Below are positions 30,001-36,000 of a DNA stretch of 64,000 nt, piece by piece. The stretch lies in the NCBI RefSeq assembly GCF_054482595.1, contig NZ_CM137008.1; one strand, given 5' to 3'. How positions within the stretch are numbered: the stretch's first letter is position 1; each line of letters begins with the position of its first letter. The position numbers are program-made.

Positions 30001-33000
30001 TTGCTGGCAGGAATTCTGCTGGCAGGTTGCGACCAGAGCAGCAGCGATGCAAAACACATTAAAGTTGGCGTTATAAATGGCGCAGAACAAGATGTCGCGG
30101 AAGTCGCTAAAAAGGTGGCAAAAGAGAAATATGGCCTCGATGTTGAACTGGTAGGTTTTAGCGGTTCGTTGCTACCGAACGATGCGACAAATCATGGCGA
30201 GCTTGATGCGAACGTCTTCCAGCATCGACCCTTTCTTGAACAAGATAATCAGGCGCATGGTTATAAACTGGTAGCGGTGGGAAATACGTTTGTCTTCCCC
30301 ATGGCGGGTTATTCCAAAAAAATAAAAACCGTGGCGCAAATAAAAGAAGGCGCGACAGTGGCGATCCCCAACGATCCGACCAACCTTGGTCGCGCGCTTT
30401 TACTGTTACAAAAAGAGAAGCTAATTATTCTGAAAGAGGGAAAAGGGTTACTACCTACCGCGCTGGATATAACCGAGAATCCTCGTCATTTGCAGATTAT
30501 GGAACTCGAGGGGGCGCAGCTCCCGCGCGTACTGGATGATCCCAAAGTTGATGTGGCGATTATCAGCACCACTTACATTCAGCAGACCGGGCTTTCTCCG
30601 GTGCACGACAGCGTATTTATTGAAGATAAAAATTCGCCGTATGTGAATATTTTGGTGGCACGGGAAGATAATAAGAATGCAGAAAACGTGAAGGAATTTC
30701 TGCAATCTTATCAATCACCCGAAGTCGCAAAAGCGGCAGAAACCATCTTTAACGGTGGCGCGGTGCCTGGCTGGTAATTCTCACTCATGCCGCGCTGGAC
30801 GATTTATTTTTCTGGCGCGGCGACGGGAATCCATTGAAATCAAAATTACCGATGACAGAATCAGCAGCGTTCCCAGCCAGTCCGGCAATGTGAACGTGAT
30901 CCCCAGCAACAGCAAAGAGAGCAGCGCGCTACTTAATGGTTCTGCACAGCTTAAAATGCTGGCTTTTGGACCGCCAATTAATTGTGCTCCTTTCAGGTAC
31001 AGGCTAAATGTCAGAGATGTACCAATGACCACCAAATAAAAAAACGCCAGAATCAAACTGCCGTTAACGACAAAGTTTGTTCCTTGTCTGGCATAAAAAG
31101 GCAACAGAATCAGACCGCCAATCAGCATACTCCAGCCGACGACTGGTAACGTGCCATAGCGGGCAATCAGCGTTGAGGGATAGGTGGTATAGAATGCAGC
31201 AGCAAATGCCGAGGCAATGCCCCAGAATAACGCGGCAGGAGAGATCGATAATGACGTCGGATTACCGTGTGTCACCAATAAAAAAGTCCCGACCAGCGAT
31301 GTCAAAATAGCGCAAAAAACCAGAATGCCCGGGCGCGATTTACGTACCAGTGAGAACCAGGCGACGATAATCGTCGGTGAGAGGAATTGCAGCACCGTTG
31401 CCGTGGCAGCATTCGATTTTTCAATGGTCAGTAAAAAGGTGAGCTGTACGGTTAGCGCGCCAACCACGGAAAAAATGAGCAGACTAATGGCATCTTTGTG
31501 ATTGTTAATAATAGAAAAGATTTTATCGCCATGAACAAATGACAGCGTCAGCAGAATCAAACCGGCGAATATCAAACGCGTCATAGTCAAAAACTGCGAC
31601 GACATCTGGCTTTGCTCCATGATGTATTGCGCGCAGACCCCTGAACTTCCCCACAACACGGCGGCAATCAGAACGTTCAGCATCCCCTTTCTGGTGGAAC
31701 CCATTTTTCCCTCTGCATACTGTTTTGTCGTTTATGTATGCAGGCATGATAGCAAAAATGGCGAGGATGGCTCTGTTTGCGCCACGCCGATTTTTCTTAA
31801 CCCAGACTGGAGAGCTAAATATCTTTAATAAACAGCAGGCAAATCATCGCAATACCCAACATCCCTATCGCCAGCCAGAACAACGCGTGGTAGCTCCAGA
31901 TTTCAACCATAATTCCGTCAACAGAGCCGGCGATAATCCAGCCGACGCGTGAAGTATTTGCATATAACGTTGTCGCAGAGCCTATTTTTTCAGGCATCAG
32001 GTCCTGAAAATAAAGCATGCCGATACCACAAAGAATGCCGAGAAAGATGGCATTAAGAATTTGTAATTCCAGCTCAACTGCCGGAGTCGTCGCCATGAGT
32101 ACGCTGGCGTAAAAACACATACCACTCACGATAGCAATGAGCATTAATAGTCGCTTGCCAATACGTTTCATGTAATAGCCTGCGATTAACATCATCGGAA
32201 TTTCCAGACCGGCAGCGATACCAATCATTTCTCCAGCCAGTTTATCGGTTAGATGCAGTTCATCAATAATAAATAGCGGCATATTTATCATGTAGAGATT
32301 ATTCGCCGCCCACATCATTGAACAAACCACAAAAAGTAGCCGCGTATCTCGCTTTCTATGGATGGAGGGTAAAATTTCTACGGGTTGGGTAACGACAGGA
32401 ATATTTCTTTGTATTGATGGCAAAAACAACCAGACTATCAGCCCGCAAACAACAAATGCGATGGCAGCGGTGAGATACATCACTTTAAAACTAAATCCCA
32501 TAGCCAGTTCATAAGCGAGCGGTGGCCCGATAACCCAGGCAAGCGAGATCTGAGCACGTAAAAATGTACTGAACATGACCGTCTCACGGCCTGTTCTGTC
32601 GGCGTGTTCACGGGCGAGGGCGAACATTTGCGGGTTTGCGGTGGAAGCAAAACTACTCAGAAGTACGCCCGTTGAGAGGAGAATGAAGTAGTTGCGATTC
32701 CACGCAAAAAGCGTGCAGGCCAGCACTCCAAATAAGCAACATAGCAGAATCAGTAATTTACGGTCGCCTTGTTTATCGGAGTGCCTTGCCAGAAATTGAC
32801 TGACCAGAATTCCCATAATAGCGCTACCGGTGAAGAAAAAACCTACCATTATAGGACGGGCTTTCAGTTCATCTGCGAGGAATATACTTAGGGTGGGAGT
32901 CTGGAGAGCGCCCGCAATACCCGTCAGAAAGGCGACAAGTAAAAATGCCGCGGCAGTGAGATCAAGTATTTTTGATGGAGTGGTAGCCGTTTTTTGCATT

Positions 33001-36000
33001 CTTCTGAATCACCGGGCGACAAAATATAACTGAGTTACAAATAAGTACCAGTCGAATGAGTATTGTATTAAGAATTTTTGAGTATCGCTGATACAACCAG
33101 AAAACAATGCTAGCGCAATATTATAGGGCCAGCAATTGAGATTATTAGCAAAAGCATGTTAAGAATTAATCACCGAATTTATATATTAATTATAGTAAGG
33201 CAATGAGCTATTTTTGATAGTAAAAATAAAACAAGTTGATTTGATATATTAAATGAACAAATTAATCTTGATGGCAGTCTGATTATTGGTGAAGTTTATA
33301 GGTCAGTTTTTTTCGCCAGCTGTTAAAGGAATAGAATAGTCGTATAAAAAAGGGTGTTCTGGAGCGTGTAAAACAACATCTTCACCTTAATGGCGATACA
33401 GTTGGCTGAGAGTCAGCAGGGGGCAAATCACCTGCAAATAAACACGGCGCATGCTGGCGCGAATATCGCGGATGCGTTCGAGGACAGAAGAACCGACAGG
33501 CGGATTCTTCAGTCGCTCATCGTCCATCACAAAACCTTTGATCAGGTATTCCTGAAGCCGATTGAATATTGAGCAGTAGAAAATCTCTGGAATGACAGTA
33601 TTACAAGGGGTTGGAGAACGTCAGTAGAGGCATTTTGGCGGAAGATCACAGGAGTCGAACCTGCCCGGGACCGCTGGCGGCCCCAACTGGATTTGAAGTC
33701 CAGCCGCCTCACCGGAGACGACGATCTTCCGCGCCTCGATTGCTACATGGAGGCGGGGCGCATTATAGCTACTTCCTTGAGTTTCTACATCCCCCAGATC
33801 AGTTTTTTCCGCCTAATACACGCAGCGTATTATCACGAAAGCATTATAGTTCATATAAAACCCATATTTTACAATGATATATGAGCGGAATTAACGCTAC
33901 CACGATCACATAAAACAAGAATCATAAATTAATAACCAGATATCGGAATATTCGCTCTCACAGGGATGGTTTACAAAATGCGTTATCGGTCTCAGCACCC
34001 CTATAGCATCAAGGAAAAGCAGATGAAGAGTGAAGTGTTGTCCGTTAAAGAGAAAATTGGTTATGGCATGGGAGACGCCGCCAGCCACATTATTTTCGAT
34101 AACGTAATGTTATATATGATGTTCTTTTATACCGATATTTTTGGCATTCCTGCCGGATTTGTCGGAACCATGTTTTTGGTCGCTCGTGCACTGGATGCGA
34201 TTTCCGATCCTTGCATGGGGTTGTTGGCCGATCGAACGCGCTCTCGCTGGGGTAAATTTCGTCCGTGGGTACTGTTTGGCGCACTGCCATTCGGGATCGT
34301 CTGTGTACTGGCCTATAGCACGCCAGATCTCAGTATGAACGGCAAAATGATCTATGCAGCAATTACTTACACCCTACTTACCTTACTTTATACCGTCGTC
34401 AATATCCCTTATTGCGCATTGGGTGGTGTAATCACCAATGACCCGACGCAGCGTATCTCGCTGCAATCCTGGCGTTTTGTGCTGGCGACCGCGGGAGGCA
34501 TGCTTTCTACGGTTCTGATGATGCCATTGGTTAATTTAATTGGTGGTGATAATAAACCACTCGGTTTCCAGGGCGGTATCGCGGTCCTTTCCGTGGTGGC
34601 ATTCATGATGCTGGCATTCTGTTTCTTCACCACTAAAGAACGCGTTGAAGCACCACCTACAACGACGTCTATGCGGGAAGATTTACGTGATATCTGGCAA
34701 AACGACCAGTGGCGGATTGTCGGTTTACTAACCATTTTCAATATCCTGGCGGTGTGCGTACGCGGTGGGGCGATGATGTATTACGTCACATGGATTCTGG
34801 GTACGCCGGAAGTGTTTGTCGCTTTTCTCACCACTTATTGCGTGGGTAACCTGATTGGTTCCGCACTGGCAAAACCGCTGACCGACTGGAAATGTAAAGT
34901 CACTATCTTCTGGTGGACGAACGCCCTGCTGGCAGTGATTAGCCTCGCGATGTTCTTTGTTCCCATGCAGGCCAGCATCACTATGTTTGTCTTCATCTTC
35001 GTGATTGGTGTGTTGCATCAACTGGTGACACCTATCCAGTGGGTAATGATGTCCGATACCGTCGACTACGGCGAGTGGTGCAATGGTAAACGCCTGACCG
35101 GGATCAGTTTTGCTGGCACGCTGTTTGTGCTCAAACTGGGGTTGGCCTTCGGCGGTGCTCTTATCGGCTGGATGCTGGCTTATGGCGGATATGATGCGGC
35201 AGAAAAAGCGCAGAACAGCGCCACGATTAGCATCATTATCGCGCTATTCACGATTGTTCCGGCGATCTGTTATTTGCTGAGCGCGATTATCTCTAAACGC
35301 TACTACTCACTCACGACGCACAATCTGAAAACCGTTATGGAACAGCTGGCTCAGGGTAAACGCCGTTGCCAGCAACAATTCACCTCTCAAGAAGTGCAGA
35401 ACTAAGGAACGGCAATGAAAATTAGCGATGGAAACTGGTTGATTCAACCTGGCCTCAATTTGATTCACCCGCTTCAGGTGTTCGAGGTTGAACAGCAGGG
35501 TAATGAAATGGTGGTCTATGCTGCCCCCCGTGATGTACGTGAACGTACCTGGCAGCTTGACACGCCTTTATTTACGCTGCGCTTTTTCTCCCCACAGGAA
35601 GGTATTGTCGGTGTGCGGATTGAGCATTTTCAGGGGGCGCTGAATAACGGTCCTCATTACCCGCTCAATATTTTGCAGGACGTGAAGGTCACAATCGAAA
35701 ACACAGAACGTTATGCTGAGTTTAAAAGTGGCAACTTAAGCGCGCGTGTCAGCAAAGGTGAGTTCTGGTCACTGGATTTTCTGCGCAACGGTGAACGTAT
35801 TACCGGTAGTCAGGTGAAAAATAATGGCTACGTGCAGGACACGAATAATCAACGAAATTATATGTTTGAGCGGCTTGATCTTGGCGTTGGCGAAACAGTT
35901 TATGGTCTGGGAGAGCGCTTTACTGCCCTGGTGCGCAATGGTCAGACGGTAGAAACCTGGAACCGGGACGGCGGCACAAGTACTGAACAGGCGTATAAAA

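Follow-up and report, generated by a model that had tools for sequence, protein, structure and literature searches.

The region around selC, the gene for tRNA-Sec, in the Escherichia coli chromosome raises the question of how an island that lies close to a tRNA gene without being joined to it came to be there. The window considered here, a stretch of 64,000 nucleotides from NCBI RefSeq assembly GCF_054482595.1 (contig NZ_CM137008.1), contains both selC and, roughly 4 kb away, the eip island, a set of T3SS-related genes (T3SS, type III secretion system). The reading that best accounts for this locus, with a probability of about 0.8, is that selC is an intact, unoccupied attB site with a fossil flank, and that the eip island is an independent, ancient and immobile insertion between nepI and yicS, which would have been kept or lost by descent, by deletion and by recombination in its flanks. 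Gene annotation was taken from the Prokaryotic Genome Annotation Pipeline (PGAP) on the record of E. coli XH990 (NZ_CP019359.1), which is 100% identical to the window (window coordinate = record coordinate - 32000). Presence and absence were counted in 5,426 complete E. coli genomes.

The initial annotation held that selC is unoccupied, and its 3' end bears this out. The gene (33636-33730, minus strand; anticodon TCA), recognized by ARAGORN and by Rfam model RF01852 (83.8 bits), is intact, 100% identical to that of K-12, and oriented so that its 3' end (33636) faces setC. It is the single tRNA that ARAGORN detects in the window, and an Rfam scan of 28900-34200 with E values up to 0.1 returned nothing beyond tRNA-Sec. 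The 21-bp sequence TGGCGGAAGATCACAGGAGTC at the selC 3' end (33636-33656), the attachment core of selC-targeting elements, is present in one copy in the window. A search for a second selC 3' end (26 nt, at most three mismatches) found that copy alone, and when 9000-33635 was searched on both strands for at least 14 matches to the 21-mer, the best result, 15 of 21, was at the chance level of shuffled controls. Because the core occurs once and the best partial match does not exceed chance, selC here is an empty attB, and its spacer on the setC side is colinear with that of K-12.

Islands anchored at selC, including the locus of enterocyte effacement (LEE), Salmonella pathogenicity island 3 (SPI-3) and P4-like satellites, use the same attB with an identical 21-bp 3' core, but the selC of the window has no integrase, no second copy of the repeat and no cargo. 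Where selC is occupied, an integrase adjoins the tRNA, TGGCGGAAGATCACAGGAGTC is repeated at the distal end of the insert, and the same spacer and setC then follow. Three occupied genomes served as comparators. In YZLc1-3, selC holds a P4-like satellite with the 21-nt core duplicated distally; in YL3, it holds a different integrase island; and in enteroaggregative E. coli (EAEC) 042, it holds a P4-like satellite, selC-A, with an integrase, psu, ogr/delta and a primase, again with a distal duplication of the core. The region 29000-34000 is covered contiguously to at least 80% in 3,627 of the 5,426 genomes. Many E. coli have selC filled by such a P4-like satellite or by some other element with an integrase; the strain analyzed here just has none of them.

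The eip island (11095-29456; approximately 18.4 kb) was delimited by comparison with K-12 and other empty sites and by its ortholog in EAEC 042. It lies between the backbone genes nepI (9910-11094, plus strand) and yicS (29457-29750, minus strand), and it ends 4,180 bp away from the 3' end of selC, with yicS, nlpA (29959-30777, plus strand), yicL (30781-31704, minus strand) and setC (31815-32999, minus strand; a sugar efflux transporter of the major facilitator superfamily) intervening; the measured distance agrees with the earlier placement of the island about 4 kb from selC, without a tRNA anchor. When two selC-island integrases and the transposase of the insertion sequence (IS) IS1 were used as tblastn queries against the whole window, the best E values were 0.05-0.4, over short stretches within or outside other genes. 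When the island and its junctions were searched for repeats, none, direct or inverted, lay at the termini, and only the tandem repeats of the adhesin gene iatC and short chance pairs were returned; the non-coding gaps within the island, at 49-301 bp, are too small to conceal a mobility pseudogene. No integrase fragment or att-like repeat thus links the island to selC. With no tRNA anchor, integrase or att repeat, acquisition through a tRNA-targeting integrase is unlikely, as had been suggested from the sequence alone.

A second suggestion in the initial annotation, by which the island would have survived from a larger element associated with selC, fares differently. On this account, eip would be the leftover of a large pathogenicity island extending from selC to nepI, with setC, yicL, nlpA and yicS as cargo. 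It would fit the use of the label 'adjacent to selC' in the literature, the somewhat low GC content across 29.0-33.6 kb, the presence of a relic of rhuM at selC, and the greater divergence between E. coli and E. albertii of setC, yicL and yicS than of adeQ and adeD. However, the order yicL-(nlpA)-yicS-nepI-yicN-adeQ recurs in Citrobacter, Enterobacter, Lelliottia, Pseudocitrobacter, Trabulsiella and others, where it is kept without eip genes, and in one Enterobacter only 18 bp separate yicS from nepI. A scan anchored on YicL, with each species represented by one genome, yielded 80 loci from other species, and queries with E. coli and E. albertii proteins found no eip or iatC remnants in any of them. 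Empty junctions are found across Escherichia, and 4,638 of the 5,426 E. coli genomes hold the intervening genes together with an empty nepI/yicS junction; in the window, no selC-end repeat is present in 9000-33635. Because their order is syntenic across genera, the genes that separate the island from selC are best taken as ancestral backbone, and for that reason the island would not be a piece of a larger selC element. Synteny has thus largely refuted the account, which is left with a very low probability. The eip island instead appears to be an independent insertion into the backbone, separate from the tRNA.

This arrangement has a published counterpart that the initial annotation did not recognize. 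In EAEC 042, two insertions were distinguished by Fox et al. 2020 (PMC7058095), who cite Ren et al. 2004 and Sheikh et al. 2006. The first, selC-A, consists of phage-like genes from selC to a 21-bp repeat of the selC 3' end; the second, selC-B, is the eip locus, comprising eipB, eipC, eipD, eicA, eilA and eaeX; and the two are kept apart by the backbone genes setC, yicL and nlpA (PMC7058095). The eip locus has nonetheless been loosely called 'adjacent to selC' (PMC7058095, PMC2808357). For strain 042 only, EilA-dependent expression of eip and air and a role in adherence and biofilm formation have been described (PMC7058095, PMC4210603). The island in the window has the same gene set and order as selC-B of 042 (air/eaeX/iatC, eilA, eipD, eipC, eipB, eicA) and the same nepI/yicS site, with equal junction-spacer lengths (201 and 301 bp) and 95-97% identity in those spacers. 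Its genes, compared one by one, are 96-97% identical to those of 042 at the nucleotide level, and in both strains setC, yicL and nlpA, plus yicS, separate the island from selC. The differences are few: the adhesin has fewer Big repeats here than in 042 (3,608 versus 3,806 aa), a 60-aa open reading frame (ORF) between eicA and eipB has a frameshift in 042 and is intact here, and 042 has the P4-like selC-A at selC, which is missing here. The strain therefore has selC-B without selC-A. This configuration is common: the eilA-eicA module, yicS-nlpA-yicL-setC, an empty selC and yicJ/yicI occur as one contiguous block in 431 of the 5,426 genomes.

Much of the island is taken up by iatC (also eaeX or air; 11296-22122, plus strand), which encodes, according to PGAP, a 3,608-aa adhesin of the inverse autotransporter type; at 14700-20000 it contains 18 tandem 291-bp Big-domain repeats, 80-90% identical to one another and with 60-63% GC. 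The adhesin is not equally long in all strains: it reaches 3,806 aa in 042 and has 1,763 aa in the E. albertii version, compared with 3,608 aa in the window, and YZLc1-3 has a split gene. The remaining genes are on the minus strand. They comprise eilA (22172-23869), for a HilA-family regulator; eipD (24072-25421), for a needle tip protein of the IpaD/SipD family; a gene of 383 codons in the eipC position (25465-26616), with no Pfam match; eipB (26629-28410), for a translocon subunit of the SipB/YopB/SseC family; the hypothetical 60-aa ORF (28466-28648), situated between the chaperone gene and eipB and also without a Pfam match; and eicA (28658-29155), for a chaperone of the SycD/LcrH/SicA family. 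The assignments of eipD, eipB and eicA are those of PGAP. The GC content of the island is unlike that of the backbone, at 37.6% for the eilA-eicA module and 55.6% for iatC versus 50.5% for the window. The same protein families (SicA/SycD, SipB/SseC, IpaD/SipD and HilA) are found in sicA-sipBCD and hilA of Salmonella SPI-1, and EilA and HilA are functionally related (PMC4210603). In contrast to SPI-1, the island has no secretion apparatus genes; the apparatus has been placed at the unlinked E. coli T3SS 2 (ETT2) locus (PMC7058095, PMC2808357), which lies outside the window.

If selC is empty, the origin of the DNA on its 3' side still requires explanation. The initial annotation described an AT-rich spacer of about 640 bp there, within a setC-selC-yicJ arrangement that looked native. 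The spacer (33000-33635) measures 636 bp at 38.2% GC and aligns end to end with the K-12-type spacer, to which it is colinear with 97.2% identity and two 1-bp indels; on the 5' side of selC, yicJ (34023-35405, plus strand) is followed by yicI. The arrangement is contiguous and colinear with that of K-12, but the description as native needs qualifying, since the spacer carries a decayed rhuM gene and the distribution of setC is restricted. The rhuM relic (33429-33558, minus strand; 130 bp), a fragment annotated by PGAP as a pseudogene in XH990 and K-12-type genomes alike, matches Pfam PF13310 at profile positions 50-99 of 252 (49.7 bits against a gathering cutoff of 33.7; E=4e-13). By tblastn, it corresponds to residues 121-171 of the 346-aa RhuM of the B2-type strain FDAARGOS_1252, with 80% amino acid identity (E=1e-19) and an 8-aa internal deletion. 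Approximately 43 codons are left of a protein that is about 345 aa when intact, and the N- and C-terminal parts are both gone, as would be expected of a pseudogene relic and not of a functional family member.

Elsewhere, rhuM is repeatedly found close to selC. It is a gene of SPI-3, which is located at selC in Salmonella (PMC3680342), and the spacer here keeps a relic of it. In Citrobacter koseri, rhuM adjoins selC. In FDAARGOS_1252 (L086), where setC is missing at this locus, the intact rhuM is bounded on one side by selC and on the other by a second, degenerate selC end, TGGCG----ATCACAGGAGTC, which the native downstream flank GAGGCATTT precedes. E. albertii (L087) has an intact rhuM beside setC, with a homolog of the selC-proximal flank of the window between them, and in the occupied comparators the rhuM relic and setC lie beyond the distal 21-bp repeat. 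Among the genomes sampled, setC is found beside yicL solely in E. coli and E. albertii, and it has no match in the 80 YicL-anchored loci from other species. The interval between selC and yicL appears to be a hypervariable landing zone. Because rhuM is decayed here but intact in selC-bound mini-islands of other E. coli and of E. albertii, and because the distribution of setC is restricted, the selC-proximal 2 kb of K-12 and XH990, with the rhuM relic, the AT-rich DNA and setC, probably represents a fossil of earlier selC insertions. The DNA 3' of the tRNA would then be what decay has left of selC-targeted insertions, after the loss of their outer repeat and integrase, and setC, judging from its restricted distribution and its position, probably belongs to it. 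In E. whittamii (L007, 8416-10001) and Escherichia sp. E1V33, a 405-aa gene, annotated as fliB (flagellin lysine-N-methylase) in E. coli CUPF09, replaces rhuM/setC in this interval; both of these genomes lack yicJ, and yicI abuts selC.

The site that the eip island occupies can be defined by comparing its junctions directly with K-12 and other empty sites. K-12-type genomes have nepI and yicS 40 bp apart, and empty sites share a conserved 46-bp stretch (AAATCCTGATATCAGGTAAAGAAGCGTTGGTCAGTGGTTG...), made up of the last two nepI codons with the stop and the 40-bp spacer, which is seen in K-12, a B2-type strain, E. whittamii, E1V33, Escherichia sp. MOD1-EC7003 and strain AHM8C212RI, and which is replaced in island-bearing strains. 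On the left, the junction falls directly after a nepI codon, AAG, and the TAA stop is supplied by the island; nepI is 394 aa here versus 396 aa at empty sites, its last two codons having been replaced. On the right, the junction falls at the yicS stop or up to approximately 57 bp before it, and the stop itself is TGA in place of TAA in island-bearing strains. The boundary is given as a range, 29400-29456, because CTGATAT...GTCAGCGGCTGCTGGCC (~29400-29435), a short sequence, could be the native spacer in diverged form.

Across E. coli, the eilA-eicA module occurs in 745 of the 5,426 genomes, at 93.5-100% identity, as against the 4,638 with an empty junction. The junction sequences are identical in the window and YL3, although the island modules of these two strains are up to 6.5% different, and those of 042, as described above, match in spacer length. 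Because the junctions are the same while the modules diverge to this extent, the island was probably inserted only once in E. coli. Some strains have partial deletions of the island (H69 and H70), and in others IS5, IS1 or ISKpn26 has inserted within it.

The island also seems to be old within the genus, because E. albertii carries an ortholog at the same site. There, one contig has the order rhuM-setC-yicL-yicS-eicA-eipB-eipC-eipD-eilA-inverse autotransporter-yicN-adeQ, with nlpA and nepI absent, and the EilA it encodes is the closest outside E. coli (76% amino acid identity). Between this island (L087, 4633-11698) and 22172-29155 of the window, identity at the amino acid level is 76% for EilA, 70% for EicA and 83% for the N-terminus of the autotransporter; the three translocators of E. 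albertii are only 25-37% identical to those of E. coli, versus 99% for AdeQ. An EilA-like protein of E. fergusonii was considered as part of a related island and set aside, as it is part of a complete T3SS of the SPI-1 type that lies close to the enterobactin genes, at an unrelated site.

The E. albertii ortholog raises the alternative that the island was ancestral to E. coli and E. albertii, so that the empty state of the majority would reflect secondary loss and not later gain in some lineages. The shared site, the deep divergence within the E. coli island (down to 93.5%) and the partial deletions in H69 and H70 could all be read in this way, and the partner locus, ETT2, is known for widespread attrition (PMC7058095). 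However, the conserved 46-bp stretch at the empty sites of K-12, B2, E. whittamii, E1V33 and MOD1-EC7003 is not something that deletion could recreate; only recombination with an empty allele could do so. Adjacency of yicS and nepI is, moreover, the state of other genera. Ancestral presence followed by loss is therefore rather improbable, at perhaps one chance in a few, and insertion once in the E. coli lineage, at the site that is also used in E. albertii, is preferred.

How the island has since moved between lineages may be recorded in its right flank. The tract formed by yicS and the yicS-nlpA spacer (29457-~29960) is approximately 82% identical to K-12, while all other backbone genes from adeQ to yicI are 97-99% identical. 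The yicS alleles differ chiefly in the signal peptide and at synonymous sites, with two residues differing in the mature protein. The K-12 allele groups with those of E. whittamii and E1V33 (92-93%), the island-type allele groups with that of MOD1-EC7003 (95%), and both are approximately 77% identical to a third Escherichia-like genome (L011). When the identity of the nepI/yicS flank to the window was scored across 5,408 genomes, it was bimodal, with about 764 genomes at 95% or above and 4,641 at 90-95%. Such bimodality is what would be expected if the island and its flank were exchanged jointly by homologous recombination.

Two further features of this neighborhood may be recorded. MOD1-EC7003 (L006, 1325-2481) has lost nlpA and most of nepI, leaving yicL, yicS and yicN adjacent, but the 3'-terminal ~50 bp of nepI are still there, as are the spacer of empty sites and a yicS of the island type. 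Secondly, relative to K-12, the window has a toxin-antitoxin pair between yicN and nepI (8976-9814), with genes at 9016-9339 and 9323-9682, both on the minus strand, that encode a RelE/ParE toxin (Pfam RelE, E=9e-42) and a helix-turn-helix antitoxin. The pair is also present in YL3, EAEC 042, AHM8C212RI and E1V33; it goes with the island-side haplotype and occurs without the island as well.

Taken together, these comparisons suggest a history in which an old insertion, made without an integrase, entered the backbone where the convergent genes nepI and yicS meet and replaced the native sequence between them. It would have been inherited vertically afterwards, with gain and loss through homologous recombination in the flanking backbone or through deletion. 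The original insertion may have occurred by illegitimate or IS-mediated recombination, and recombination in the flanks may account for its spread.

A more specific form of the IS-mediated route is that the island arrived at nepI/yicS as an IS-flanked composite element, the IS copies of which were lost later. A second, divergent module (L090/L091) at an unrelated locus is bracketed by IS3-type transposase fragments (rve, HTH_Tnp_1), which shows that the module can travel with IS elements, and the insertions of IS5, IS1 and ISKpn26 within the island of some strains are in keeping with this. Neither junction in the window, however, has an IS remnant, inverted repeat or target duplication, and the gene order differs, as the autotransporter gene adjoins the chaperone gene at the alternative locus and eilA here. 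Arrival as a composite element is accordingly unlikely. The second module (L090/L091, 1-12200; from a genome labelled E. coli) encodes an inverse autotransporter, a chaperone, an SseC-family protein, a 454-aa protein, a T3SS tip protein and an EilA-like regulator (55-57% amino acid identity). It has a GC content of 32.6%, and its Pfam content suggests that the locus lies beside the yjiK-to-yjiR genes.

Three Escherichia versions of the module are thus available, from the window, from the same site in E. albertii and from the IS3-flanked locus, and among them regulators and chaperones are 53-76% identical and translocators 19-37% identical. It is possible, although doubtful, that the eicA-eipBCD-eilA block is a portable, fast-diversifying translocator cassette, and that the E. 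coli version sits on an anciently diverged nepI-yicS haplotype, maybe introgressed from an unsampled Escherichia through flank recombination.

Several points weigh against the history preferred here, that of an unoccupied selC with a fossil flank and an independent, old insertion at nepI/yicS. The E. albertii island has diverged beyond the backbone (75% nucleotide identity for EilA versus 89% for adeQ, with translocators at 25-37% amino acid identity), and although this excess fits fast evolution, it also fits separate acquisitions at one site. AHM8C212RI and MOD1-EC7003 combine an island-type yicS with an empty junction, so that the yicS allele is not strictly tied to the island, and the order of events could be either that of a pre-insertion haplotype or that of a recombinant. 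At the junctions, no target-site duplication, IS scar or microhomology that would point to a mechanism of insertion could be established. Finally, the place of setC in the selC fossil is argued only from its restricted distribution and its position.

For the biology of the locus, the term 'selC-associated' describes the eip island only loosely, as the island is not integrated at the tRNA, and its excision or transfer in the manner of LEE or P4-like elements is not to be expected. The selC of this strain, for its part, is still open to integrase-bearing elements. Current understanding is unchanged by these results: the published descriptions are mainly confirmed and slightly sharpened, with small additions in the form of the rhuM relic, the divergence of the yicS tract and the ortholog in E. 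albertii. The last two provide simple markers for tracing the spread and loss of the island, and such tracing bears on the question whether ETT2 and eip are still functional in extraintestinal lineages, among them ST69 (sequence type 69).

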